A DNA stretch of 64,000 nt, from assembly GCA_032127875.1 (NCBI GenBank), contig JAQBHI010000126.1, positions 1,861 to 65,860 on the forward strand. The letters run 5' to 3'. Shown here piece by piece: positions 6,213 through 21,728 of this stretch. Under the pieces are notes generated by a model. It did not search any database. It worked only from the letters and a program-made list of their open reading frames with translations, and had not been told where the DNA came from. Made by a program: the position numbers and the translations under genes. The stretch's first letter is position 1; each line of letters opens with the position of its first letter. The stretch comes from Acidobacteriota bacterium. GTDB taxonomy: Bacteria; Acidobacteriota; Vicinamibacteria; Fen-336.

Positions 6213-7213
6213 GCGGCCTCGAGGCGTTTCACGAGAAGGCGTAGGGCGTCCGGGCCGATCGGGTCCCCGAACAGGTAGGGCAGCGAGACCAGCGGGGCCT
6301 GGATGTCGCGCCGCAGGCGCTTTTCGAAGAACTGCGTCAGCTTGCGCCGGCGGATCTGGCGCCGGGCGGCGGCTAGTGCCGCGCCCAGATCGGCGTCGCG
6401 AGCGAGCCGGCCGCTGGCTCCCTGGGCGCACAGGCGCAACACGTCGGCTTCCTCTTCGTTCGTGAAACGGCGCTCATGGGCTGCATTCAGCACCGTCGCC
6501 GCGCAGCTGATGCCGAGCTCCTGCGTCGCGAGCCGGTAAAACCAGGCGGCCTCGACGGCGGCCATTTCCTCCGGGATCGCGACCACCACCAGCGCCGTTC
6601 GCCGCGCATCGCGCAACAGCGTGAGAATGCGCCGGGCATTCGCGCCGATTGGCCCGACGGGGACGGCCGCGGCCGCGGCCTGGGGCACTCTCAGGAACGA
6701 GAGGCCATGGCCGGTGGCCGGGGCGTCGACGATCACGAGGTCGAAGCGTGGCTTGCGCGACCAGCCTTGCGTCTGCTCCTCGAGCAGCATGATCTTGCCG
6801 AGGACCATCAGCTCCTTGAGGCCCGGCGCGGCCGCGAAGAAGCGGTGATAGATCGGGCTCGCGAGAACGCGCCGCGCCAGCGCTTCGATCTTCACGACAT
6901 GGCCGACGTATTCGTCCATCACGGCCTGGGGCCGGAGGTTGACCGTGAAGAGATTGGGTCGCGCCTGCGTGATCGAGCCGCCGGAATCGCTCGAGCCCAG
7001 GTAGCCTGCCGCCTCGCGGGGCGTATCGATTTCCACCAGCAGGGTGCGCTTGCCCCGCTCGGACGCCGCCAGCGCGAGCGCTGTGCCGGTGACGCTCTTG
7101 CCCACGCCGCCCTTGCCTGAGAGCACGAGCAGGCGCCTCTCGAAGAGCTGGTCGAGGATCACGCGGCTGGAGCCTAACATGCGGCGAATCGAATAGAATT
7201 CCGAGGCTTCCAT
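6209..7213 (-). CDS. ArsA/Get3-family ATPase (third paralogue, short form). True start may be the internal Met (MLGSS...) near 7180.
   Basis: LLVLSGKGGVGKS P-loop; DAPATGHGLSFLRVPQ signature. Confidence 0.8.
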   Translation of the reverse strand: MEASEFYSIRRMLGSSRVILDQLFERRLLVLSGKGGVGKSVTGTALALAASERGKRTLLVEIDTPREAAGYLGSSDSGGSITQARPNLFTVNLRPQAVMDEYVGHVVKIEALARRVLASPIYHRFFAAAPGLKELMVLGKIMLLEEQTQGWSRKPRFDLVIVDAPATGHGLSFLRVPQAAAAAVPVGPIGANARRILTLLRDARRTALVVVAIPEEMAAVEAAWFYRLATQELGISCAATVLNAAHERRFTNEEEADVLRLCAQGASGRLARDADLGAALAAARRQIRRRKLTQFFEKRLRRDIQAPLVSLPYLFGDPIGPDALRLLVKRLEAA

Positions 7214-7979
7214 GACCAGCCAGCTGCCCGCTGCGGCAAAGCAGAAGCCGCGCGTCGTGATCGTGATGCCGGCCTACAACGCGGCCAAGACGCTCGAGGA
7301 CACGTTCCGGGCGATCCCCGCCGGGTATTACGACGAGATCGTCGTCGTGGACGACCACAGCCGCGATGACACCACCGGACTCGCCGAGCGTCTCAACCTC
7401 AAGGCGATCCGCCACCCGCACAATGTCGGCTACGGTGGCAACCAGAAGACCTGCTACATGGAGGCGCTGCGCGACGGCGCCGAGATCGTGATCATGCTCC
7501 ACCCCGACGGCCAGTACGACCCGACGATCCTTCCCGAGATGGTCAAGCCGATCGCGGAAGGCCGGGCCGAGATGGTGCTCGGCTCACGCATGCTGACCCC
7601 CGGCGGCGCCAAGCGCGGCGGCATGCCGCTGTGGAAGCGCATCGCCAACCGCTGCCTCACGAGCCTCGAGAACCTGGCGATGGGCCAGAGGTTCAGCGAG
7701 TGCCACACGGGGTATCGGGCGTACAGCCGGCGCTTCCTGGAGACCGTGCCGTTCCTGCGCAATTCGAATGGCTTCGTGTTCGACACCGAGGTCATCTTCC
7801 AGGCCGTGCACTTCGGGCTGCCGGTCGTCGAGGTGCCGGTCTCGACCCGTTATTTCGACGATGCCTCGTCGGTCGGCTTCCGGGCGGGCGTCGTCTACGG
7901 TCTGGGCACGTTGTGGACGGCCACCCGCTTCCTGCTCCACCGAGCCGGGCTCGTCGAGTCCCCGAAGTTTCGGCGCTAG
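7212..7979 (+). CDS. glycosyltransferase family 2 (GtrB / dolichol-phosphate mannosyltransferase-like)
   Basis: N-terminal GT-A fold motifs (VVIVMPAYNAAKTL...EIVVVDDHSRDDT...MLHPDGQYDP). The ATG overlaps the ATG of the divergent ArsA ORF (CATG). Confidence 0.8.
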   Translation: MTSQLPAAAKQKPRVVIVMPAYNAAKTLEDTFRAIPAGYYDEIVVVDDHSRDDTTGLAERLNLKAIRHPHNVGYGGNQKTCYMEALRDGAEIVIMLHPDGQYDPTILPEMVKPIAEGRAEMVLGSRMLTPGGAKRGGMPLWKRIANRCLTSLENLAMGQRFSECHTGYRAYSRRFLETVPFLRNSNGFVFDTEVIFQAVHFGLPVVEVPVSTRYFDDASSVGFRAGVVYGLGTLWTATRFLLHRAGLVESPKFRR

Positions 7980-8205
7980 GCGCCGCTCAGTCCCTCGAAT
8001 GCCGGCTTTGGCCGTGCCACGAACCATCTCGTTCAAGCGGAACATCACCTGCGCGCGAGCGCCGCCACCCATGCGCCGGTAGCTCTCGATTTGAACCGCG
8101 TCAGCGTCCGGGCTCGTGTCCGCGGCGATCGGCATGCGGTAGCTTGGCACTCGGGCTCCAGGGCGCCCTTTGAGCCCGTCCCGCCATGGCGGCTCCTGTC
8201 CGAGC

Positions 8206-9888
8206 TCAGCGTCCAGCGACGAAGAAGTGGCCCGCGTTCTGGGCGTAGAGCCGGCCCTCGGCATCGATCGAGAGTGGCGTGTAGGCAGAGCCCAGAGGCC
8301 GTTCCAGGAATACGCTCCTGCGCAGCGTCCCGTCCGAACGGATCGCGTAGAGAAAGCCGTCCTCCGCGATCCCGAAGACGTCGCCATTGCGATCGAGCGC
8401 GGGGGCGTTGATGCACCATTCGAAGCCATTCGGATTGAGAAAATGCCAGTCGGGTGCGAGCGTGTCGCCGCGCAGCTGTGTCACGAAGTACTGGCCCTCG
8501 AGCGGATCGGTGGCGCAGCTTCCGCAGTAGGAGCCGACGCCGCCGTAGTGGTTGTCCTTGACCACGATGCTGTAGCCGGCGCCGGTCGCGCGCACCGCCG
8601 GAGTAGTGTCCCAGCCGAAGTCGTAGGCCGCCAGATAGCGACCGTTCGCGTCGAACTTCATCAGATGGCCGCGGGAATAGTTGTAGCGTGAGAACGCGCC
8701 GTAGAGGATGCTGCCGTCGGGTGCCACCACGGGTGAGGAGGACGAGAGGTCGGTCACTTCGCCGTCGCCGAGGCGGTTCGTCAGTGGGTTGACGCCGAGG
8801 CGGGAGCCGCTGCGGCAGCCGCCTGCTGCGCCGTTCGGCGGCAGCACACCTCCGCCCGAAGCCGGCACGCCGCAGCCGTCGGCGAAGCGCTCGCGCAGGG
8901 TCGATGTGAAGCGCGGCGACAGGTCGGCGTTCACGGCGACCAGGGAGCCGTAGCGGGCGTTGAAGTGCGCGCGGCTCACCGTGTACACCGTCCCGTCGTG
9001 CCCGATCACCGGCCCCACGTTGACGCCCGGCCGCTGAGAACCGCAGGCGGCGCTCGGCGGCGTCGCGTCGGCACTTGGGGGCCAGGGCAGCGGCTCGGTC
9101 GTGAAGCTGGTCAGGCACTCTGCGCGAGCGCCCGGCGCTCCGCTGACGATGTCGGCGTAACGGGCGAGGCTGGCACGCCCATCGCTCGTTACCCGCACGA
9201 GCCAGGCGTCCTGTACATCGCGCCGCCAGGGGTCGGCGGGATCGAGCCGCAGGGCGTTGTAGTAGATCTCGCCATTCGCTGTGGCGGCGAGTGGTCCGGA
9301 AGCGAAAATCCGGGGATCCAGCGAGGCGCCGAACGGATTGATGCGCGTGACCAACGAACCGTCGTTCACGTCGAGCTTGATGAGCGTCCCAGCGGCGCCG
9401 GGAACGTACAGGAATCCACCGGCGAGGGCGCCCTGATTCACGGGTTCCCAGCGCAGCACGCCGCCGGGAGGCACGGGCTTCCAGTCCGAGCGATAGTTCC
9501 AGATTTCGCTCAGGCTTCCGTTCTGCCAGTGCAGGCGCTTCCAGTTCCACTCCTGCGAGGCCCAGTTGTCCGGGCCCGTGTACGTGCCGGACTTCGTCAT
9601 CAGGAACACGTCGTCGCCCGAGGCCAGCGGCACCGGGTAGTGGACGAGTAGCGCCCCGCGGCCCGAGGTCTGGATCTCCTGTGGCACGAACGGATCGACG
9701 ACCGTCTCGAAGAGCAGGCGGTCCGGGCTCTGGGCAACGACATCGAGGGTGCCCGTGTGTTGCGGGTTCTGGCCCCATTGCGGCCAGGCCACAGGACCCG
9801 AGACGGGGGGCGTCCCGGCGCTCTCGTTTCCGCCACAGGAGGGCATCAGCAGAAGGCAAAGGACGCCGATCGGGGCTCGGGTGTTCAT
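8206..9888 (-). CDS. secreted hypothetical protein (signal peptide; W/Y/N/D/G-rich, beta-propeller-like composition)
   Basis: Start at MNTRAPIGVLCLLLMPSCGG. Composition is typical of exported proteins. The competing ORF 8045-9859 on the same strand is R-rich junk. Confidence 0.55.
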   Translation of the reverse strand: MNTRAPIGVLCLLLMPSCGGNESAGTPPVSGPVAWPQWGQNPQHTGTLDVVAQSPDRLLFETVVDPFVPQEIQTSGRGALLVHYPVPLASGDDVFLMTKSGTYTGPDNWASQEWNWKRLHWQNGSLSEIWNYRSDWKPVPPGGVLRWEPVNQGALAGGFLYVPGAAGTLIKLDVNDGSLVTRINPFGASLDPRIFASGPLAATANGEIYYNALRLDPADPWRRDVQDAWLVRVTSDGRASLARYADIVSGAPGARAECLTSFTTEPLPWPPSADATPPSAACGSQRPGVNVGPVIGHDGTVYTVSRAHFNARYGSLVAVNADLSPRFTSTLRERFADGCGVPASGGGVLPPNGAAGGCRSGSRLGVNPLTNRLGDGEVTDLSSSSPVVAPDGSILYGAFSRYNYSRGHLMKFDANGRYLAAYDFGWDTTPAVRATGAGYSIVVKDNHYGGVGSYCGSCATDPLEGQYFVTQLRGDTLAPDWHFLNPNGFEWCINAPALDRNGDVFGIAEDGFLYAIRSDGTLRRSVFLERPLGSAYTPLSIDAEGRLYAQNAGHFFVAGR

Positions 9889-10052
9889 GGCGGGAAAGCG
9901 TACCTCATCCGGGGGAGTTGATTGAACAGGCCGGATATTCATCTTGTTGATCGCCGAGCGATGAAGTGTGCCGGCTCTCGTGAACCAGTGCTGGACAGTC
10001 GGAGGCAACTCTGCTCGAATAGGCGAATAAAAGGCGAAACATCAGAAAAACC

Positions 10053-13000
10053 GTGTACGTCGAGCTCCATGCCGCTTCGGCCTTCTCGTTCCTGCGCGCT
10101 GCGTCCCTGCCTGAAGAGCTCGTGGCGCGCGCGGCGGAGCTGGGCTATCCAAGCCTGGCACTCGTCGATCGCGACGGCATCTCGGGCGCGCCGCGTTTCT
10201 TCAAGGCCGCGAAGGCCGCGGGCATCCGGCCGATCGTGGGCGCCGAGTTGAGCCTGCGCGGCGGGGGCGCGCTGCCGCTCGTCGTCGAGAGCCGAGAGGG
10301 CTACCAGAACCTGTGCCGGCTCATCACGCGCATGAAGGCCGGCGTGCCGAAAGGCACGGGGACGCTCGAGCTTACGGCCCTGGAAGGCAACGTCGCCGGC
10401 CTCGTGGCGTTGCCGGGAGTCGGGGCGCTGGGCCACCCGCCCGACACCGATCGGCTCGCGCATCTGCTTGCGGCTTTCGGCCCACGCAGCGTGGCGATCG
10501 AGGTGCAACGGCATCGCCGCCGCGAACAGGAGGCCAGGAACCGGGCGCTGCTCGACATGGCAGACAGCCTCGGCCTTCAAGCCGTCGCGACGAACGGCGT
10601 GCGGCATGCGCTCTCGCAGGGGCGGGCGCTGCTGGACGTGCTCACCTGCATCCGCGAGAAGCGGACGCTGGCCACGGCCGGGCGCCTGCTGGCCGACAAC
10701 GCCGAGCGCCAGCTGAAGGCGCCGCAGGCGATCGAGGCGCTCTTCCGCGATCGCCCCGAACTGCTGCGCAACGTGGCGGCGCTCGCCGAGCGCCTCAGCT
10801 TCACGCTCGACGATCTTGGCTACCGCTTCCCCGAGTACCCGGTGCCGGCGGGGGAGACGATGCAGTCGCACCTGGCGCAGGCGACCGACGCCGGCGCTCG
10901 CGAACGTTACCGGCCGTACCACGAGAAGGCCCGCCGCCAGATCGAGCGCGAGCTGGCGTTGATCGGCAAGCTGGAGCTGGCCGGCTACTTCCTCATCGTC
11001 TGGGACCTCGTGAACTTCTGCCGGCGAGAAGGGATTCTCGTTCAGGGTCGCGGCTCGGCGGCGAACAGCGCCGTCTGCTACAGCCTCGGCATCACGGCCG
11101 TGGACCCCGTCGGCATGGAGCTGCTCTTCGAGCGTTTCCTGTCCGAGGAGCGCGGCGAGTGGCCCGACATCGACCTCGACCTGCCCAGCGGCGGCAAGCG
11201 CGAGCGCGTGATCCAGTACGTCTACGAGCGCTACGGCGAGCGCGGCGCGGCGATGACCGCCAACGTCATCACCTATCGCGACCGCAGCGCCTCGCGCGAG
11301 ATCGGCAAGGCGCTCGGCATCCCGCTCACGGAGATCGAGCAGCTCGCGCGTTACATGCGCCGCTTCGAGTTCGTGGACCCGGACGACACGCTCGCGAAGC
11401 GGCTGCGCGAAGCGGGCTTCGACACGGGCGACTCGCGCATCCGGCTGTTCGCACGGCTGTGGGGCGAGATCCAGGACCTGCCGCGGCACCTGGGCCAGCA
11501 CTCGGGCGGGATGGTGATCGCACAGGGCGCCCTCGACAGCGTAGTGCCGCTGGAGCCGGCCTCGATGCCGAGCCGGGTGATCGTGCAATGGGACAAGGAG
11601 GACTGCGCCGACTTGGGGATCATCAAGGTCGACCTGCTCGGCCTCGGGATGCTGGCGGCCCTCGAGGACTGCATCTCGATGTTGCGTGGGCGCGGCGTCG
11701 AAGTGGACCTTGCGCACCTGCCGCAGGACGACCCGAAGGTCTATGCGATGCTGCGGGAGGCCGACACCGTTGGCCTGTTCCAGGTCGAGAGCCGCGCCCA
11801 GATGGCGACGCTGCCGCGCCTGAAGCCCGAGCGCTTCTACGACCTCGTGGTCGAAGTCGCGATCATCCGGCCGGGACCGATCGTGGGCAAGATGGTCCAC
11901 CCGTACCTGGACCGGCGCGCCGGGCGCGAGGGGGTCCGCTATCCGCATCCGTCGCTTGAGCCGATCCTCGCCCGCACGCTGGGCGTGCCACTGTTCCAGG
12001 AGCAGCTGCTGCGCATGGCGATGACGGCGGCCGGCTTCACCGGCGGCGAGGCCGAGGAGCTGCGCCGGGCCATGGGTTTCAAGCGCTCGCAGAAGCGGAT
12101 GGCCTCGATCGAGGCGCGGTTGCGCGCGGGCATGCTGCGGAACGGCATCACGGGCGAGGCCCAGGAGCAGATCGTGCGCTCCATCGCCTCGTTCGCGCTG
12201 TACGGGTTTCCCGAGTCCCACGCCGCGAGCTTCGCACTCATCGCCTATGCCAGCGCCTACCTGAAGGCCTACCATCCGGCGGCCTTCGTGGCGTCGCTGC
12301 TCAACAACCAGCCGATGGGCTTCTACCATCCGACGACGCTCGTGAAGGACGCGCAGCGCCACGGAGTGCGCTTCGAAGCGGTGGACGTGACGCGAAGCGA
12401 CTGGGACGCGACACTCACGGACGGCGGCGTGCGTCTCGGGCTGGGTTGTGTCGCGGGCCTGCGCCGCGAGGCGGGGGAGCGGATCGTCGTCGAGCGCGCA
12501 GGCGCAGCGTTCGCATCGCTGCAGGATTTCGTCGACCGCGCCTCGCTGCGCCAGGACGAGTTGCGGATCCTCGCCGAGATCGGCGCGCTCAACGCCTTCG
12601 GACTGACTCGGCGGAGTGCCTTGTGGCAGGTGGAGCGCGCGGCGCGCCCGCGCGGGCCGCTGCTACGCGACGTTCCCGAGGTGCTCGATGACTCACCGCT
12701 GCCGGAGATGACGTTTCCCGAGCGCCTGACCCGGGATCTTCGCGGCACGGGGCTCACGGCCGGCCCGCACCCGATGCTGCTCTATCGCGAATCGCTGGTG
12801 GCGCGCGGCGTGAGGCGCGCGGTCGAGTTGTCGCGGCTCGAGGACGGTGCGCGTGTGAGCGTGGCAGGCGCCGTGATCTGCCGGCAGCGGCCCGGTACAG
12901 CCAAGGGCTTCCTGTTTCTGACGCTCGAAGACGAGACCGGCCTCGCCAACGTGACGGTGCGTCCCGACCTGTTCCAGCGGGCGAAAGGCGTTCTGGTGAA

Positions 13001-13118
13001 CACCGGAATTCTCGAGGTCGAAGGCATCTTGCAAAACCTCGAAGGTACGTCGGTCCGTGCGCTTTCCGTCCGGCCTCTGGGCAAAGCCCCTATCTCGATG
13101 TCACGGAATTTTCGATAG
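10053..13118 (+). CDS. dnaE2: error-prone DNA polymerase (DnaE2/ImuC, Pol III alpha-type)
   Basis: 1021 aa. N-terminal PHP domain (MYVELHAASAFSFLRAAS...) and polymerase core motifs. The length matches DnaE2 rather than DnaE1. GTG start. Confidence 0.9.
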   Translation: MYVELHAASAFSFLRAASLPEELVARAAELGYPSLALVDRDGISGAPRFFKAAKAAGIRPIVGAELSLRGGGALPLVVESREGYQNLCRLITRMKAGVPKGTGTLELTALEGNVAGLVALPGVGALGHPPDTDRLAHLLAAFGPRSVAIEVQRHRRREQEARNRALLDMADSLGLQAVATNGVRHALSQGRALLDVLTCIREKRTLATAGRLLADNAERQLKAPQAIEALFRDRPELLRNVAALAERLSFTLDDLGYRFPEYPVPAGETMQSHLAQATDAGARERYRPYHEKARRQIERELALIGKLELAGYFLIVWDLVNFCRREGILVQGRGSAANSAVCYSLGITAVDPVGMELLFERFLSEERGEWPDIDLDLPSGGKRERVIQYVYERYGERGAAMTANVITYRDRSASREIGKALGIPLTEIEQLARYMRRFEFVDPDDTLAKRLREAGFDTGDSRIRLFARLWGEIQDLPRHLGQHSGGMVIAQGALDSVVPLEPASMPSRVIVQWDKEDCADLGIIKVDLLGLGMLAALEDCISMLRGRGVEVDLAHLPQDDPKVYAMLREADTVGLFQVESRAQMATLPRLKPERFYDLVVEVAIIRPGPIVGKMVHPYLDRRAGREGVRYPHPSLEPILARTLGVPLFQEQLLRMAMTAAGFTGGEAEELRRAMGFKRSQKRMASIEARLRAGMLRNGITGEAQEQIVRSIASFALYGFPESHAASFALIAYASAYLKAYHPAAFVASLLNNQPMGFYHPTTLVKDAQRHGVRFEAVDVTRSDWDATLTDGGVRLGLGCVAGLRREAGERIVVERAGAAFASLQDFVDRASLRQDELRILAEIGALNAFGLTRRSALWQVERAARPRGPLLRDVPEVLDDSPLPEMTFPERLTRDLRGTGLTAGPHPMLLYRESLVARGVRRAVELSRLEDGARVSVAGAVICRQRPGTAKGFLFLTLEDETGLANVTVRPDLFQRAKGVLVNTGILEVEGILQNLEGTSVRALSVRPLGKAPISMSRNFR

Positions 13119-13122
13119 CCCT

Positions 13123-14040
13123 TCAGGCGCTGGGAACGGTTTCGTCCCCGCCGGCGTGTTCCAGGTACGACAACATGCCGCCCGCGAGCAGCGCGGTGTA
13201 GTCCATTGCCAACTCGAAGTTGTCCTCGAACACGTCCAGCAGGCCTTCGATCGTGCCGTGAAGGGCTCGCACGGGCGTCAGGGTGGTGGCCGAGAACCAG
13301 TGGCGGACCTCGGCCACCGCCTCCATCGCGCCGATCGCGTGGGGATGGCCCACCTCGAAGCTGAGCTTGTGCGCCTGCGAAGCGCAGCCGACACGACCGT
13401 CGACCACCAGCAACACGTAGGGGGCGGGATCGGCCTCTGCCCACAGTGAGACGCCGGCGTCGAAGTGGACCTCGGTGAGGCCGCGAGACAGCTCAGCGAG
13501 GGCGTTGATGCTGCCGCGCGCGAAGGGCGTCATCTGGCGTAGAAAATGGATTCGTTCCACGAAGTCGAGTTGACCCGAGGCAAGATCCGTCGGCGGGGGT
13601 GAGGCTGGGAACTGCTGCGGCCCGACGCGCTGTTGCACCGAGATCGCCCAGCGAGAGAGGTATTGGAGCGTGCGGTGCACGATCACGAAGTGGTCCTCGC
13701 AGACCTCGAACAGTGCGTCCGCGTCGAGCTCCAACGTGAAGCTGTCGACGTCCGCGATTCCAAGGTAGCCTCGGCTGTCCCGGGCGAGCACCGCCAGGGC
13801 GCCCATCGGCGTTCCCGGTCCTGCGCCGGCGACCGGGGTGCCCCCCCGGGAGGCGCGGATGTAGCCATCGAGCACGAACTGGATCCGGCTGACGGGTTCG
13901 CCCTCGCGTTGCACGACCGCGTCCTTCGGGAACGACCGCTCGCGGAGCAGCTCCGCGAGCGCCGCCAGCGAGTCGTTTGGCAGCTGTGAGAAGGCCGGAA
14001 CCTTTTTCAGATAGAGGATCCGCTCCAGCGTGCCGATCAT
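13123..14040 (-). CDS. tandem cyclic-nucleotide-binding (cNMP) domain protein
   Basis: Two CAP-family effector-domain-like halves (ERSFPKDAVVQREGEP... and a second in the C-terminal half). Confidence 0.65.
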   Translation of the reverse strand: MIGTLERILYLKKVPAFSQLPNDSLAALAELLRERSFPKDAVVQREGEPVSRIQFVLDGYIRASRGGTPVAGAGPGTPMGALAVLARDSRGYLGIADVDSFTLELDADALFEVCEDHFVIVHRTLQYLSRWAISVQQRVGPQQFPASPPPTDLASGQLDFVERIHFLRQMTPFARGSINALAELSRGLTEVHFDAGVSLWAEADPAPYVLLVVDGRVGCASQAHKLSFEVGHPHAIGAMEAVAEVRHWFSATTLTPVRALHGTIEGLLDVFEDNFELAMDYTALLAGGMLSYLEHAGGDETVPSA

Positions 14041-14050
14041 CCCGCCCCGT

Positions 14051-16780
14051 TCAGGCACGTTGCAGCTTTGCGCTCACGCCGAGCAGGTCGAGGGCCCGCT
14101 CCAGCGCGCGTGACACGAAGAACTGCTTTTCCGCTGCCTGCAGCGCTTCGAGCCGGGGCCGGAACGTCGTGAGCCCGAGTTCGGCGATGTGATGCGCTGC
14201 CAGGCAGCGTAGCGACTCGCTCGCCTCTTCGAGCATCACGCCCAGCAGCGCCTCGTAGGGGAGGGTGCTAGGCGCGTGGAAGGGCCGCGCCCGGGCCAGG
14301 CGCTCGGCATCGGCCAGGTCGTCGTGCAACGAGAGCACGGCATCGCGCAGGGGCGGAAGCAGCAGGTTTTCGAGCAGCTCACGGCTGCTGGCGCGGATCC
14401 TGGCGTTGGCGCTGCTGCGGCCGCGGTAGATGCTGCGCAGGTCCTCGTGCCGGAACTGAAGCCCCAACAGACGGAACAGCCGTTCGACCGCGTGCGCCTG
14501 CTTGTCGCGGAGCAGGCAGACTAGAAGCTGGTGCGTTCGCGTGAGGCGCGTGCCGTCGGACGCGGCTCCCGCCTGGAGCGCGAGGCGCCAGTCGATCACC
14601 TTGAGAGCCGCCTGAAGAGTGGCGGTGGTGGCTCGGCCGAGGATGGCCCCGTCCAGCGGCAGCTCGGGAGCGTTGCTGTGGATCCGTCCGAGGCCGCGCA
14701 GGATCTTGAAGCGGACCATGCCGTCGGGCTCCGCCTCGAGCTGGCGCAGCAGCAGCGGGGCCGCGTCTTCCGGCGGGAAGGGGCTGATCGTCCGCGGCAC
14801 GTGCCGCCGGATCTCCTGCGGCAAGCCGTAGTCGGCCGAGGCCCGTTCGAGAAAGGCAAGGCCTGCGGGGCCGTGCGCCAGGAAGGCCCCCCGCGCGGCG
14901 GCGCGCACGCTGCGTTGCGCCAGCATCGGCAGCAGCGCGGGGAGGAAGCGCTCGTCGGGCATCGCCGCCATGGCCTGGGCCACGTCGCTCAGCACTTCGC
15001 CTTCCGGCGCCTCGGACAGCTCGAGCAGCGTCGCGACGAAGACCGCATCGGGCTGGAGGCGGATGGCTTGCGCAAGAGCCGTTCCGGCTTCCGGCGACTG
15101 GCTGTCGAGCAGCTCCGTCAGCGCTCTCTGGGTTTCGTCGGAGACCCAGCCGCCGGAGACGAGCCCGACCAGCGCGGCAGCTCGGACCCGCGGGCTGGAG
15201 TCGTGGCTCGCATGCTCGAGAGCCACCCTGTCGGTCTTGATCGCCACGCGCGCCCGAAGTGCGGCGGCGCGGATCTCGGGGTCGGCATCACTGAGCAGGC
15301 GGTCCGCGATGGACAGGAAGTCGGTGCGCTTCGCCGTGGTGAACAGCGCCAAGGCCCGCAGCGCGACGGCCTTGGATGGGTGATAGAGGATCAGTGCCGG
15401 AATCAGCCGCGCCTTGCCCTGGGTTTCGAGCAGGTCGAGGGCCCCCACGACCTCGGCGTCGTCGCTGCTGTTGAGGGCCGCGAAGATCGCCTCCAGCGAG
15501 CCCAGGTCGAGTTCCGGCACTTCGGCGCTGGTCACGATCGAGCCCTGGCGCAGTGCCGTCCGAAACAGATCGAGGTAGTTGTCCTTGAGGTCGCTGGCCG
15601 TCACTATCCAGAGCGTGGCCAGGATCAGCAGCGTCAGGGCGAGGAAGGCGCTCTGAGAGATGAAGGCCACGGGCGTCAGGATCAGCAGCGATGCGAGCGC
15701 CTGCCCGCCGCGTTGGCAGGTGACATCGATGAACGGCTTGGCGCGGGCGCGGATCGCGTCGGGCAGCGGAACGTAGAGCAGCTCGGTGGCGGTGCGATGC
15801 AGGGAATGGCGCAACGACCCGTCGGCGCCCTTCAACCACAGCGCCGCGGCGAGCCCGCCGCCCACGAGCAGAACGCTCGACCCCGCGATGAGCAGGGCGG
15901 GCAGCACCACGAGTGCTCGGTGCACGCCGAGCCGCCGCAGCAGCCAGCCGACCAGCGCCACCTGTACGATCAGTGCGAGGGCGTTGAGCAGCAGGTACAC
16001 GCCCGCGAAGAATTCGCCCAGTGCTTCTCCGGGCACGTACTTCACGACCGCGCTCTTGAACAGGTAGTCGGCGAGCGTCACCGCCATGGTCGAAGACAGC
16101 ACCAGCCCGGCGAGCGGGCGCGCGTAGGGATGGCGCAGGATCAGCTTCATCGAGCCGGACAGGGAAAGCGCCATGCTCGGTGCCGGGGCCTGGGCGGTGG
16201 CCTTCGAGAACAGCGAGGGCCCCAGGCTCGAGACGAAAAAAAAGGCGGCGCTGGCGAGGATCAGGTGCCGGGAGGGCAGCGCCGCGGCTATCACGCCGGC
16301 GATGCCGGCGCCGAGGATCGCGCCCAGCACGCTGCCCGTGCCGATGATCCGGTACAGCCGCTTGGCCTGCGTGAGGTTGTAGATCTCCGAGAGCACGCCG
16401 TAGAACTGAACGGTGGCGACCGTGCCGAAGAGCCCGCACCAGATATACAGCGTGTACAGCAGCCAGCGCCCCCGCGGGACTTCGCTCAACTCCCAGAGCA
16501 CGAAGTTGGCCAGGGCGGCAACCAGCAGCAGCAGCGACAACGTCGTGCGGCTCGAGAGCCGGCCCAGTCGCGGCGCGGGCAGCCGGGACAGCGCGAAGGC
16601 GATGGCCGCGATCGCGATGTACATGAAGGGCAGGCGCGTCGCTGGAATGCGCGCCAGGAACAGCGCGTCACGCGCCGTTTCGAGGAGGGTGTGACCCGCC
16701 AGGATCCCGAACAGGGTCACGAAGGCTGCCGCCGCGCCTCGTCGCTCCTCTGGCCGGACGTCACCCAACGTCGACAGCAT
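14051..16780 (-). CDS. ATP/ADP-translocase-like (Tlc/Npt1 family) 12-TM transporter fused to a C-terminal HEAT-repeat (PBS-lyase-like) domain
   Basis: N-terminal ~430 aa are polytopic membrane with Tlc-like N-terminus. The C-terminal ~450 aa carry repeated ...DPEIRAAALRAL.../...SPRVRAAALVGL... HEAT-like repeats. Overlaps the downstream cNMP gene by 8 nt. Confidence 0.75.
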   Translation of the reverse strand: MLSTLGDVRPEERRGAAAAFVTLFGILAGHTLLETARDALFLARIPATRLPFMYIAIAAIAFALSRLPAPRLGRLSSRTTLSLLLLVAALANFVLWELSEVPRGRWLLYTLYIWCGLFGTVATVQFYGVLSEIYNLTQAKRLYRIIGTGSVLGAILGAGIAGVIAAALPSRHLILASAAFFFVSSLGPSLFSKATAQAPAPSMALSLSGSMKLILRHPYARPLAGLVLSSTMAVTLADYLFKSAVVKYVPGEALGEFFAGVYLLLNALALIVQVALVGWLLRRLGVHRALVVLPALLIAGSSVLLVGGGLAAALWLKGADGSLRHSLHRTATELLYVPLPDAIRARAKPFIDVTCQRGGQALASLLILTPVAFISQSAFLALTLLILATLWIVTASDLKDNYLDLFRTALRQGSIVTSAEVPELDLGSLEAIFAALNSSDDAEVVGALDLLETQGKARLIPALILYHPSKAVALRALALFTTAKRTDFLSIADRLLSDADPEIRAAALRARVAIKTDRVALEHASHDSSPRVRAAALVGLVSGGWVSDETQRALTELLDSQSPEAGTALAQAIRLQPDAVFVATLLELSEAPEGEVLSDVAQAMAAMPDERFLPALLPMLAQRSVRAAARGAFLAHGPAGLAFLERASADYGLPQEIRRHVPRTISPFPPEDAAPLLLRQLEAEPDGMVRFKILRGLGRIHSNAPELPLDGAILGRATTATLQAALKVIDWRLALQAGAASDGTRLTRTHQLLVCLLRDKQAHAVERLFRLLGLQFRHEDLRSIYRGRSSANARIRASSRELLENLLLPPLRDAVLSLHDDLADAERLARARPFHAPSTLPYEALLGVMLEEASESLRCLAAHHIAELGLTTFRPRLEALQAAEKQFFVSRALERALDLLGVSAKLQRA

Positions 16781-16886
16781 GTACGGGCGATTTTACGACG
16801 ATTGGCTGCGACTGCCCCGAAGCGTCTCGGGGCGAGTGCGGAGCGGGCGGGGGGGTGCTTGGCAGCGCACTCCCCGGGTCTGCCGA

Positions 16887-17408
16887 CTAGAACGTCCTGG
16901 CGAGGTCGAGGGCGCTCTTGACGTCGATACGTTTGAAGGACAGACCGTTCTTCGGGTCGGTGATCGGGGCGCCGGTGCTCTTGAGGGCCGCCTCGATCTG
17001 GCCCGGCGAGAGGTCAGGCCGGGCCTGGAGCAGCAGGGCCGCGGCACCGGCAGCATGCGGGCTTGCCTGGGACGTCCCGAGGAAGGTCGAGGTCCCGCCC
17101 CCGCGTCCCGCTGCGCTGATCGCGGCGCCCGGCGCCAGCGTGCCCTGCATCAGCGTCGCGAAAGAGAGCCGAGCCTGAACCGAGGTGTAGAGGAGCCCCG
17201 TGGCCGTGTTCAGGACGGCCGCGACGATGTAGACGTAGGGCAAGGCCTCCGAGCCGAAGTGCGCGAGGAACAAGGCACTCGCGGCGGTCTCGAAGAACAC
17301 CGTGGCGAGGCCCATCGCGAAAGAGTGCCCGAGCATGAGCGAGGCGGACTGGCGCTCGCCGGGCTCGACACCCAGGGCCAGAGCCACTCGCCCTGCCAGC
17401 GAAGCCAT
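16887..17408 (-). pseudogene. chimeric remnant ORF: N-terminal ~85 aa paralogous to the N-terminus of the adjacent translocase, fused in frame to the C-terminal ~88 aa of a subtilisin-like (S8) peptidase
   Basis: N-terminal part aligns to gene 14051-16780 (ER..A....LFG.LAGH.LLET...ALFLA). C-terminal part is GTSQASPHAAGAAALLLQARPDLSPGQIEAALKSTGAPI, the subtilase catalytic-Ser region. Junction near 17150. Confidence 0.5.
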
Positions 17409-17484
17409 TTCGACCTCGTGACGAAGGTGCGACGACGCCTCCCGCAGGCGCCGGCGAGAGACTATACGCGATAGAATCGCGGCG

Positions 17485-19368
17485 ATGGCGGCAAGTGCGA
17501 AGCGCGCGGCAGCGGCCGACGCGGATCCGGATTTCTCCCCGAGCCGCTACATAGCGCGGATCAGCCTGGACACCGGCAAGGAGATGCCCGGTCCGATCGA
17601 CCCCGAGGAGTTGCTGGTGCACGCCCACCGCGACCGGCATCCGGTCGAGGTGGCCGCGCAGTTCGTGGCGAACCGCGTCGTCGGGCTGACCGGCAAGGAA
17701 GCCGTCGTGCGTCGCGGCCTGAAGGCCTTCAACACGCTGGGTCGATGGCTCGTGAGCGGCGTGGGGGCCGCCTCGGGCAGCCGCGCCGTTGCGGAGCGGG
17801 CGAAGCGGCTGATCGGCGTCGTCGATCCCGGATTCGCCTTCCGCTTTCGCGAGCCGACGCACCTCTCCGACCGGCAGCTTCGGGAACGGGTGAGGAAGCT
17901 GCAGGGCGATGCGGCCGTGCGCCTCAAGGCGCGGGGTCGGAACCCGCGGCTCCGGATCCTCATGACGGGCGCCACCGGCTTCGTCGGCAAGGAGATCCTC
18001 AGCCAGGTCGCTTCGGACCGGCGCGTGGCGGAGCTGGTCGCGGTGCTGCGCCCCGAAACGCTCCGCGATCTGAAGACGAAACAGGTCCTGAAGGTGCTCT
18101 CGCCGGCGGAGCGTGGGGCGCTGCTCCTGAAACGGCTGCGTATCACCGGGACCCGCGCGCAGCGCTTCCGCTTCGTGGCCGGCGACATCGAGAAGCCCAA
18201 CCTCGGCATCGCGGCCGGCGAGATCGCCCGGCTCCGCAAGACGCTCACGCACGTGATTCATTGCGCCGCGAGCGTTTCCTTCGACGACCCCTACGAAAGC
18301 TCGTTCCGAGCCAACGTGCTCGGTTCCCTGAACGCGCTGCGCTTCTCGCTGCAGATCCAGCAAACGCCCGGCTCCGCCTTTCTCCACCACGTCGCGATCG
18401 AGACCTCCTACATCCACGGCCGGAAGAAGCGTTCGATCGCCCAGGAGCGCGCGCTGGTCTTCCCGCGGCACTTCTACAACAACTTCTACGAGCTCACAAA
18501 GGCGATGGCCTCGATCGAGACCGACCGCTTCCTCGTGGCGCGAGGCTTGCGAGTCGTGCAGCTCTTGCCTTCGATCGTGATCGGCGAGGCCCGCACCGGG
18601 AACAACCGCGGCGACCTGAAGGTCGTGAACGCGCCGATCAACGCCTTCGGCCGCGCCAAGGAGGCGGTGGATCGCTCGCACGGGGATCTGCTGGGCATGC
18701 CGAAGGCGCGCGTCATCGCTGCGCTCGCCTGTGTCTTTCCGGGCGACCCGAGCGCGGAGATGAACCTGGTCCCGGTCGACCGCGTCGCCGCCGGGATCCT
18801 GGCGGCGCTCGGCGTGAGCGCGGCCATCGGCGTGCGCATCCACCTCGCCACCGACAACCGGATTCCCTCCGAGGACATGCTACGCATCGTCCACGAAGAG
18901 CTCGGCGTGCAGGTGCGGCTGGCCGACCCCACGCTGTATCGCAACCTGACGATGCCGCTCGTGAAGACCGTCTTGGAACGCGTCGGCGAGCCCAGGCTGG
19001 GGGCGGCCCTGGAGCGGCTCTCGACGATCTTCGGCGCCTACGGGGAATGGGGTCAACCCGTCCACGAAGTCGGCAACGACGTGCGTCTGCTGGGCCTTGC
19101 GCTGCGGCGGCCCGACACGCGCCACGCCTTCCGCATGCTGTGCCGTCACAACCGCTACGTCCAGGAATACGGACGCGTGCGCGACGCCGACGAAGTCGCG
19201 CGCCGGGAGCATGCCTGGGAAGAGGCGATCGACGCCATCGAGCACCGGACCGGGCGCCAGGCGTCGGCGATCCCGGCGGGGGAGTTCAGGGAGCTGCTCG
19301 TCGAGGAGATCGACCTCAAGGGTTTCGAGCGACGTCAGCCAGTACGCAAACGCGGAGGCGACGAATGA
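17485..19368 (+). CDS. thioester-reductase-domain / fatty acyl-CoA reductase-like SDR protein (male-sterility NAD-binding family) with ~150-aa N-terminal extension
   Basis: RLRILMTGATGFVGKEIL Rossmann motif followed by a TR-domain-like region. 627 aa. Confidence 0.75.
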   Translation: MAASAKRAAAADADPDFSPSRYIARISLDTGKEMPGPIDPEELLVHAHRDRHPVEVAAQFVANRVVGLTGKEAVVRRGLKAFNTLGRWLVSGVGAASGSRAVAERAKRLIGVVDPGFAFRFREPTHLSDRQLRERVRKLQGDAAVRLKARGRNPRLRILMTGATGFVGKEILSQVASDRRVAELVAVLRPETLRDLKTKQVLKVLSPAERGALLLKRLRITGTRAQRFRFVAGDIEKPNLGIAAGEIARLRKTLTHVIHCAASVSFDDPYESSFRANVLGSLNALRFSLQIQQTPGSAFLHHVAIETSYIHGRKKRSIAQERALVFPRHFYNNFYELTKAMASIETDRFLVARGLRVVQLLPSIVIGEARTGNNRGDLKVVNAPINAFGRAKEAVDRSHGDLLGMPKARVIAALACVFPGDPSAEMNLVPVDRVAAGILAALGVSAAIGVRIHLATDNRIPSEDMLRIVHEELGVQVRLADPTLYRNLTMPLVKTVLERVGEPRLGAALERLSTIFGAYGEWGQPVHEVGNDVRLLGLALRRPDTRHAFRMLCRHNRYVQEYGRVRDADEVARREHAWEEAIDAIEHRTGRQASAIPAGEFRELLVEEIDLKGFERRQPVRKRGGDE

Positions 19369-19664
19369 GGGAAGAAGAAACGATCTTCGAGCGGCTGAAG
19401 ATGCGCGGCGAGGAGATGTTCCAGCAGGTGTCCGGCGAGCTGATGAACAACCCACGTTTCGTGGCCGCGATGCGCTCGGCGCTGCGCGGCAAGGAGAAAC
19501 TCGACGAAGCCTCGGCGCGTGCCCTGAAGGCCATGAACGTGCCGACGCGGAGCGAGTTCAAGAAAGCACTTCGCCGGATCGAGACGCTCGAGGCGGAGCT
19601 GGCCGCGCTCAAGGCCAGCAGCAAGCCGGCGTCGAAGCGGCGCCAGGCGAAGAAGGCGCGCTAG
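19366..19664 (+). CDS. phasin-family (PHA-granule-associated-like) small protein, 99 aa
   Basis: ATG overlaps the upstream stop (ATGA). ...NVPTRSEFKKALRRIETLEAELAALKA... resembles a phasin C-terminus. It appears in the track only as the tail of a different-frame ORF. Confidence 0.6.
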
Positions 19665-19670
19665 CTTTCA

Positions 19671-20650
19671 TGCGCCGGCTGGCTGTCACGGGCGCCGGAT
19701 CCTTCCTGGGCGGCAGACTGTTGCGGCGGCTGATCGAGACGCGCGGCGCCGACAAGCTCGTGGTGATCGACATCGCCGCTCCGCCCGCGACGCTCGAGGT
19801 CCGGCACCACGAGATCGACTTCACGCAGCCTGCCTCGGATGAGCGCTTGTTGCAGGTGCTGCGCGAGGAGCAAGTGGACAGCGTCGTGCATTTCGCCTTC
19901 TTCACGAACCCGCGCCGCGACAAGAGCTACGCCCACGAGCTGGAATCGATCGGCACCTTGAAGCTGATGGCCGCGGCGGCTGCCGCAGGCGTGTCCCGCG
20001 TCGTGCTCCGCTCGTTCACTGCCGTATACGGGGCGCGCGGCCAGAATCCGAATTTCCTGACCGAGGAGCGCCCGCTGCAGCCGAATTCCGCGCTGGCCTG
20101 GGCGCGCGACAAGTTCGAGGCGGAGCAGCACGCGGCCTCATTCGCGCGGCGCTATCCCGAGATGGCGATCAGCGTGCTGCGCTTCGCGCCGCTGTTCGGG
20201 CCTGGCGTTCGGAACTTTTATACGCGCATCTTCGACAACCGCGTCGTGCCGACGCTGATGGGCTTCGACCCGCTCGTGCAACTGCTGCATCCCGACGACG
20301 CCTTGGATGCCGCCGAGGCGGCCCTGGAACGGGGGGTGGCCGGCGCCTTCAACATCGTCCCGCGAAGCGCGATTCCGCTCGCCTCGATCCTGCACCTGGG
20401 CGCCAAGGTTCCGCTTCCGGTGCCGCACCCGCTCGCGTACGCGCTGTCCGACGCGCTGTGGGCGGCGGGTCTGGCCGAGGCCCCCGGTGCGTTCCTCGAC
20501 TACGTGCGCTATCTGTGCGTCGCCGATGGCGCGCGGGCGGAGCGCGAGCTGGGCTTCCGGCCGCGTTACAGCAGCCGCGATGCCCTGCTCGCCTATCTGC
20601 GCTACCGGCATCCCGAGCCGGCTCCAGGGACGGCGGAGGCCACCGCGTGA
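19671..20650 (+). CDS. NAD-dependent epimerase/dehydratase family protein (SDR)
   Basis: MRRLAVTGAGSFLGGRL Rossmann N-terminus. 326 aa. Confidence 0.75.
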
Positions 20651-21666
20651 AGGCCTCGGCAAAGGTGGTGTCGATCCGTAGCGGCAGGCAGAGCTCAGAG
20701 GCCGAGAGCTTGCGAGAAAAGGTGCGGGCTCTCGAAGACGAGCTGCGGCAGCTCGCGCAGAAGCAAGGCGTCGTCGACCGGGAAGGCGCGCTGGTGGCGA
20801 TCGCGCGGATATTCCAGGCGGGCACCAAGGGCCTTTCCTGGGAAAACCTGGCGCGCGCGCTGGCCGCCTGGCATTTCTCCTGGCACTCGGAGGAGGTCGA
20901 CGCTTTCGGCTTCGACAAGAAGTTCATGGAGACGCTGCGGCCGATGTTCGAGTTCCTGTACACGGTGTGGTGGCGCGTCGAGGCCAGCGGTGTCGAGAAC
21001 GTGCCGAGCCAGGGCGCCGCTCTGATCGTCGCCAATCATTCGGGCGTGCTGCCCTACGACGGCCTGATGATCAACATCGCGGTGCGCCACAAGCATCCGG
21101 CCCGCCGCGAGTGCCGGATGCTGGCGCTCGACATGTTCGCGCTGCTGCCGTTCCTGGCGCCGCTGCTTTCCAGGAGCGGCGCCGTGCGGGCCAATCAGGA
21201 GAACGCCGAGCGGCTGCTGCGCGGCGGCGCGCTGGCCGGAGTATTCCCCGAGGGTGTCAAGGGAGTCGGCAAGCGCTTCAAGGACCGCTACAAGCTGGCG
21301 CGCTTCGGCCGGGGCGGTTTCGTGCGCCTCGCGCTGCGCACCGGCGCGCCGATCATTCCCTGCGCCGTGGTGGGCGGCGAGGAGATCCATCCGGTGCTCG
21401 CAAAGGCCGACTGGATCGGCCGGCCGTTCGGTCTCCCGTACTTTCCGATCACGCCCACCTTTCCGCTGCTGGGACCGCTCGGCGTCGTGCCGCTGCCGAC
21501 GAAATGGAGCCTGGATTTTGCGGACCCGTTGTCCGTGGCGAAGTACGGGCCCGAGGCCGCCGACGATCCGATTCTCGTCAATCGGCTGGCAGAGCAGGTG
21601 CGCGGGACGATTCAGCGCATGATCGACGGGCGTCTCGCGAGACGCCGCTCGATCTGGGTCGGGTAG
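20647..21666 (+). CDS. lysophospholipid / 1-acyl-sn-glycerol-3-phosphate acyltransferase (PlsC family) with N-terminal coiled-coil extension
   Basis: HX4D motif region (ALIVANHSGVLPYDG) and FPEG-type motif (GVFPEGVKG). GTG start overlaps the upstream TGA. Confidence 0.75.
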   Translation: MKASAKVVSIRSGRQSSEAESLREKVRALEDELRQLAQKQGVVDREGALVAIARIFQAGTKGLSWENLARALAAWHFSWHSEEVDAFGFDKKFMETLRPMFEFLYTVWWRVEASGVENVPSQGAALIVANHSGVLPYDGLMINIAVRHKHPARRECRMLALDMFALLPFLAPLLSRSGAVRANQENAERLLRGGALAGVFPEGVKGVGKRFKDRYKLARFGRGGFVRLALRTGAPIIPCAVVGGEEIHPVLAKADWIGRPFGLPYFPITPTFPLLGPLGVVPLPTKWSLDFADPLSVAKYGPEAADDPILVNRLAEQVRGTIQRMIDGRLARRRSIWVG

Positions 21667-21728
21667 CACCGGCGGCGCCCTGCTGGACATGTGAGGGTCC
21701 GGCAAGGCCCACTGCCTAACTCCAGCGC

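Follow-up and report, generated by a model that had tools for sequence, protein, structure and literature searches.

Within a 64,000-nt stretch of an Acidobacteriota contig (hereafter the window), a short open reading frame on the minus strand (ORF173; Table 1) begins like a membrane transporter and ends like a subtilisin-type protease. Such an ORF could be a recently formed pseudogene, a new small membrane-anchored protein or a product of faulty assembly, and the question raised by this locus is which of these it is and by which event its two halves were brought together.

Table 1. Features of the ORF173 locus; positions refer to the window unless contig L016 is named.
Feature	Position	Strand	Basis or remark
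ORF173, chimeric ORF, 173 codons + stop	16887..17408	minus	ORF list, sequence
TA-derived segment, codons 1-91, two hydrophobic helices	17136..17408	minus	90-91% aa identity to the N-termini of the intact 1055-aa TA of L003 and L009
S8-derived segment, codons 92-173 + natural stop; sole catalytic motif is the Ser box GTSQASPHAAG	16887..17135	minus	Pfam PF00082, alignments to L016 and L004
Deletion junction with microhomology, CTG GCG C (Leu91-Ala92 + first base of codon 93)	17132..17138	minus	nucleotide comparison
Junction-spanning peptide of ORF173			...LMQGTLAPGAAISAAGR...
75-nt spacer after the S8 stop	16812..16886	minus	no counterpart in L003, L004 or L016; G-rich stretch 16821-16861 resembles repeats at 553-727
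Conserved upstream region of the 909-aa gene, untouched by the deletion; -10-like TAAAAT at 16790-16795, 9 nt before ATG	16781..16811	minus	L003 homology resumes at 16811
Intact NTT(TLC)-HEAT gene, 909 aa, distant TA paralog	14051..16780	minus	Pfam TLC, HEAT_2, MFS_1
cNMP-binding protein, 311 aa	13123..14058	minus	overlaps stop of the 909-aa gene; kept downstream in L003, L009-L012
Divergent intergenic region, intact; GAGG ribosome-binding site at 17414-17417, 5 nt before ORF173 ATG; reductase upstream region	17409..17484		conserved with L003
Divergent NAD_binding_4 (fatty acyl-reductase-like) gene, left flank	17485..19368	plus	Pfam; kept in L003, L009, L010, L012, L016
L016 TA, 1078 aa, NTT-HEAT-cNBD	L016 6311..9547
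L016 phosphate-selective-porin-like gene	L016 9580..10764		Pfam Porin_O_P
L016 S8 subtilase, 444 aa	L016 10764..12098		complete Pfam S8 domain

Composition of ORF173 and its matches among known proteins

ORF173 is an in-frame chimera of a transporter N-terminus (residues 1-91) and an S8 subtilase C-terminus (residues 92-173), as a first-pass annotation made from the sequence letters had proposed for positions 16887-17408, and this reading is borne out by a Pfam match to the S8 family and by alignments to an intact transporter gene (TA) and intact S8 genes of related loci. Residues 99-146 correspond to profile positions 226-273 of 288 of Peptidase_S8 (E 1e-9; 38.6 bits at a cutoff of 21.8), and the NCBIfam matches were sub-threshold and of superfamily rank only. 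The motif GTSQASPHAAG, which had been named as part of a subtilisin C-terminus, occupies residues 111-121, includes the catalytic-serine motif GTSxAxP and is the same in the S8 protein of contig L016. The subtilisin assignment holds, as identity of the S8 part of ORF173 reaches 83% with the C-terminus of P0002, a subtilase of metagenomic origin (contig L004), and 71% with that of the L016 protein. All three share a common natural stop, directly preceded by ...TF or ...AF (P0002 terminates in ...KRIDVKAALDLAKTF and the stop). By tblastn mapping, ORF173 aligns to residues 6-91 of TA and to residues 362-444 of S8 from L016. Hydropathy indicates two hydrophobic helices only, at about residues 29-49 and 55-77. 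Neither another S8-like sequence (tblastn) nor a second TA copy was found in the 64-kb window.

A search of 5.8 billion proteins recovered a single protein identical to ORF173, with records in NCBI and in the Logan assemblies of two runs. The remaining matches fell into two non-overlapping classes, transporter N-termini and subtilase C-termini. Members of the transporter class are 63-74% identical to residues 1-91 and continue after '...LMxGTL' into more hydrophobic helices ('WFLLVSV...'), and those of the subtilase class are up to 83% identical to residues 92-173, which are preceded there by '...CFSNSNAVVDLL'. No second protein spanning both halves was present among the 5.8 billion, and a scan of JGI metagenomes with ORF173 did not find the junction peptide MQGTLAPG at any other locus; a conserved family of stand-alone short ORFs, the finding that the first-pass annotation had named as speaking against a fusion event, was thus not seen. 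As all matches measured <=301 aa, a family of short proteins was considered and rejected, the matches being truncated or frameshifted pieces of ordinary long genes.

Source of the two halves in related loci

The N-terminal residues had been described as paralogous to the downstream Tlc-like gene and as a duplicate of its 5' end. Similarity to the N-terminus of that gene, which encodes 909 aa and has >1300 orthologs, does exist (36% over 47 aa by BLASTP, E 5e-5; 34% over 74 aa by tblastn, E 4e-7), whereas the intact 1055-aa TA of the related loci L003 and L009 is 90-91% identical over 90 aa (E 5e-49), with the similarity reaching through residue 91. A recent duplication of the 5' end of the 909-aa gene was rejected on the basis of this difference, and the 5' part of ORF173 is the surviving 5' end of TA, a separate and ancient paralog of the 909-aa gene. 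In L003, L009 and L016 the corresponding position is occupied by an intact TA, and in L026 and L027 the 909 ortholog follows immediately after the 3' end of TA. In TA homologs, further helices follow residue 92. TLC, HEAT and cNMP-binding domains were identified in the TA of L003, and HEAT and cNMP-binding domains also in that of L016.

The NTT-HEAT family, which combines a TLC/NTT domain (PF03219) with HEAT repeats, is functionally uncharacterised, and both NTT-HEAT-cNBD fusions and NTT-HEAT proteins with a separate cNBD have been described (Major, Embley and Williams 2017; PMC5381601). TA exhibits exactly the fused NTT-HEAT-cNBD architecture, and the 909-aa gene is an NTT-HEAT gene followed by a separate cNBD gene. 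ORF173 shares with the fused type residues 1-91, which are orthologous to the TA N-terminus (90%), and retains only the first two helices. The two architectures can be compared directly at this locus, where the cNMP-binding domain is C-terminal in TA (L003:6744-9911) and resides in a separate 311-aa gene after the 909-aa gene (window 13123-16780, minus strand). The start of the 311-aa gene overlaps the stop of the 909-aa gene by 8 nt, and TA residues 914-1031 align to the 311-aa protein at 32%.

The ancestry of the S8 half was traced through contigs obtained from the JGI metagenome scan and mapped by tblastn. At the position corresponding to the window locus, L016 carries a reductase gene on the minus strand divergent from TA, followed by a porin O/P gene, S8 and the 909 ortholog. 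The L016 S8 protein starts with MRPLSAAVLALLLSVAPGRG, a signal-peptide-like N-terminus. A look at orthologous loci for an intact subtilase, as the first-pass annotation had recommended, thus located a 444-aa S8 next to the 909 ortholog. The same succession of transporter, porin and secreted S8, all on one strand, is conserved in several Acidobacteriota contigs (L016:6311-12098; L013, L017, L018). P0002 is encoded on L004, where a 909-like gene (MLKLGDVRPDERRGVA) starts 31 nt after the S8 stop; the S8 of this contig contains an in-frame TAG where L016 has Glu, which is observed in a single contig and may be a sequencing error.

The closest genome locus, and the one locus returned by a scan of the genome collection with the 909 protein, is L003 from an uncultured Acidobacteriota MAG (~86% nucleotide identity). 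Its collinearity with the window extends over both flanks (window 21669..17132 = L003 2482..7020; window 16811..8205 = L003 9971..18560), and between the two blocks 2950 nt in L003 stand against 320 nt in the window. The 2950-nt interval is the rest of the intact 1055-aa TA (6744..9911), and a subtilase is absent from the L003 locus. L009, L026 and L027 share this TA-909 arrangement and are likewise missing porin and S8; together with L003 they are the four closest relatives, with 83-85% identity in the 909 protein. In L010, L011 and L012, whose 909 orthologs are 69-72% identical, the reductase gene is directly divergent from the 909 ortholog, and TA, porin and S8 are all absent. The cluster is demonstrably dispensable, as it has been lost at this locus in several ways: the transporter alone has been kept (L003, L009, L026, L027), nothing has been kept (L010-L012), or S8 carries an in-frame stop (L004). 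That the immediate ancestor of the window possessed S8 would accordingly be read from the more distant relatives, the four closest being without it.

The contexts of two transporter matches (P0009 and P0052, in L005 and L006) were uninformative, as these frameshift-ridden assemblies end 1-2 kb past the TA start, and two more distant S8 matches (P0046 and P0015, in L007 and L008) lie in unrelated neighbourhoods. The reductase ortholog of L009 (L009:4176-6057) is distributed over two frames (tblastn HSPs covering residues 1-377 and 379-627), and the genes called at this site encode 253 aa and 341 aa, the second of them on the opposite strand, which is indicative of a frameshift or of faulty assembly in this MAG.

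The junction and its origin

The window stems from a metagenome-assembled genome and is GC-rich around the junction, so that a false join of unrelated regions during assembly has to be weighed. However, the same junction recurs in Logan assemblies made independently from the separate runs ERR5010711 (99.9% identical to the window) and ERR5010722 (99.7%), and the two differ in the SNPs that they carry. Furthermore, no more than 8 nt are shared at the junction, much less than the k-mer of any assembler, and synteny with L003 and L016 holds on either side. The junction, which two separate run assemblies with different SNPs support indirectly, is almost certainly real, and an artefact of assembly is extremely improbable. 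Both Logan contigs end exactly at window position 17488, where the first 24 nt of L001 fully diverge (window 17485-17512; L001:1-24). The reductase start read from L001 would be MVRPERGPE..., compared with MAASAKRAA... in the window, which is indicative of variation between strains, or of a rearranged 5' end of the reductase gene, within the same population.

The junction spans codons 91-93 and reads ACG CTG GCG C-TG CTG in TA, CTG CT(C/G) GCG C-CG GGC in S8 and ACG CTG GCG CCG GGC in the window (hyphens mark the end of the shared stretch), so that 4-8 nt of microhomology are shared (GCGC, up to GCTGGCGC), the length depending on the ancestral S8 codon. Relative to L003 the breakpoints are sharp, at 17132 and 16811. 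The interval missing between the TA and S8 pieces is about 5.3 kb (5.27 kb in L016 coordinates), and the two pieces keep the native order, orientation and position of the first and last genes of the cluster. Short microhomology at the crossover is typical of illegitimate, microhomology-mediated deletion. A mosaic junction, suggested by the window's 'AIS', which resembles 'LIS' of TA rather than 'AIT' of other S8 proteins, was considered and treated as a coincidence, as the intervening PGAA codons are S8-derived.

It is thus very probable that ORF173 is the remnant of a ~5.3-kb deletion across the three-gene cluster of TA, porin and S8 in one lineage of soil Acidobacteria. The ancestor would have carried the reductase gene divergent from a same-strand series of TA (about 1055-1078 aa), porin O/P, a secreted S8 (about 444 aa) and the 909-aa gene. 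One illegitimate recombination at the short microhomology would have removed TA from codon 92 onward, the whole porin gene and S8 up to about codon 362, and the ends would have been joined in frame by chance. The 909-aa gene would have retained its own promoter-proximal region and remained unaffected. Translation of the remnant would yield a membrane peptide in which two helices are followed by 82 residues of subtilase, with this tail facing the wrong side of the membrane. Of the deletion or duplication initially proposed, only the deletion is needed, as a single deletion across TA, porin and S8 suffices, and the idea that the 5' end of the downstream gene was duplicated is not borne out in view of the intact TA genes in L003, L009 and L016.

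The spacer that follows the S8 stop and the gene content of the nearest relatives could also be reconciled with a replacement, in which the ancestor already had TA directly before the 909-aa gene and a double-strand break in TA was repaired either with 2.95 kb being lost and 320 nt of a subtilase gene taken up from elsewhere, or through recombination with a strain that still possessed the cluster. Porin and S8 are missing from 4/4 closest relatives, and the spacer is without a counterpart in the three loci compared. A captured fragment, however, is unlikely to arrive in native orientation, with the natural S8 stop and at the exact site upstream of the 909 promoter region that S8 occupies in L016 and L004. 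Moreover, the distances that separate the window, L003 and L009 from one another are similar (dS 0.46-0.61), so that independent losses are easy to accommodate. Replacement hence appears highly doubtful, and the single deletion remains the preferred account.

Deletion-generated fusion pseudogenes and chimeric ORFs are known from bacteria, where they arise by microhomology-mediated illegitimate recombination between same-strand neighbours. ORF173 resembles them in having intact parents of the same order and strand in a relative (L016) with the interval missing, in the microhomology at its junction, in the retention of the first gene's start signals and the last gene's stop, and in its restriction to one lineage. 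Nothing essential sets it apart; slightly unusual are the in-frame join and the fact that decay is not yet visible. ORF173 is therefore a case of ordinary gene loss, one more instance of a well-known type of event.

Part of the spacer resembles intergenic sequence elsewhere in the window. Two tandem G-rich repeats of ~80 nt (553-632 and 649-727) are 89% identical to each other and contain GGCGGATTCACTCCGCC and G7 runs, and weaker partial copies (82-86%) are located at 1896-1944 and, within the spacer after the ORF173 stop, at 16821-16861. These may constitute a small REP/MITE-like family or reflect mere G-rich similarity.

Predicted product, selection and expression

From the S8 family (PF00082), ORF173 keeps the C-terminal part with GTSxASP, whereas the signal peptide and the catalytic Asp, His and oxyanion Asn are gone. 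In the S8 protein of L016 the motifs of these three residues (VVDTG, GHGT and NFSLG) all lie before residue 362, and ORF173 begins with the TA N-terminus in place of the signal peptide. Its S8 catalytic domain is incomplete, being restricted to profile positions 226-273 of 288, and ~360 N-terminal residues of the S8 protein are missing. On the transporter side, Pfam returned no TLC (PF03219) match, HEAT repeats or cNMP-binding domain for ORF173; the latter two are present in the TA of L003 and L016. Because the tail lacks the catalytic Asp, His and oxyanion Asn and has no signal peptide, the product cannot be a protease, and because only the first two helices remain, without HEAT repeats and cNBD, it cannot be a transporter. 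ORF173 can probably still be transcribed and translated, as the upstream region, ribosome-binding site and start of TA and the stop of S8 are all retained. With two helices following a cytoplasmic N-terminus, its tail would be located in the cytoplasm, in contrast to the exported parental enzyme.

The reading frame is intact and shows no sign of decay. For the TA part, dN/dS is 0.22 between the window and L003, 0.14 between the window and L009 and 0.215 between L003 and L009, and the S8 part gives 0.13 (window-L004) and 0.20 (window-L016), compared with 0.16-0.21 for the 909-aa gene. A three-point decomposition assigned dN ~0.026 and dS ~0.19 to the window branch of the TA part, which is not faster than the branches leading to intact genes. 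The strain SNPs within ORF173 are both synonymous (2/2; V37V and S44S), a number that carries no statistical power. The low dN/dS values and the intact ORF fit a very recent deletion and equally well continued selection, between which 91 + 82 codons cannot discriminate. A long neutral history of ORF173 is excluded.

These observations bear on the proposal that ORF173 is a functional new small membrane protein, in which a two-helix anchor from TA carries a C-terminal fragment of a subtilase and is kept by selection, for instance because it modulates the paralogous NTT-HEAT transporter. It would explain the intact ORF with its retained ribosome-binding site and upstream region, the low dN/dS without acceleration on the window branch, and the two synonymous SNPs. 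Yet the chimera was found in one population only, the low dN/dS mostly records history before the fusion, and the two SNPs are too few to weigh. The catalytic Asp, His and Asn are absent, ~48/288 Pfam S8 positions remain, and a fragment of this size is no autonomous folding unit of the subtilisin fold. In addition, an in-frame join is expected in 1 of 3 cases by chance, and relatives have dropped the cluster without leaving such an ORF. We consider a functional new protein very unlikely. That selection maintains ORF173 specifically as a two-helix membrane protein, whose helices or tail might contact the downstream NTT-HEAT transporter, appears highly improbable; if true, it would represent gene birth from deletion debris caught in the act.

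With regard to the choice left between a recent pseudogene and a new small membrane protein, the evidence favours the pseudogene. A recent deletion is favoured because the chimera is confined to one population, the parts required for either parental function are missing and the cluster is expendable in the clade. Most likely ORF173 is recent, has no function and is bound to erode, as the cluster did in sister lineages. As an intact-looking deletion leftover that may be annotated as "Peptidase_S8" although it is no protease, it calls for caution in the annotation of MAGs. The comparison of loci also identified a conserved transporter-porin-subtilase cluster beside a paralogous NTT-HEAT/cNBD pair in Vicinamibacteria-like Acidobacteriota, which could help later work on the NTT-HEAT family.

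A consensus promoter and terminator scan of positions 16650-17600 found nothing. Visual inspection of the alignments, by which alone these elements were spotted, revealed a -10-like box (TAAAAT, TAGAAT, TAAGAT, TAGTAT or TAACAT) 6-9 nt ahead of the start codon of the 909-aa gene in 7/7 loci (window, L003, L004, L009, L010, L012 and L016). A similar box, TAGAAT (17468-17473), is located 7 nt before the ATG of the reductase gene. The proximity of these boxes to the starts of the 909-aa and reductase genes suggests putative leaderless transcripts.
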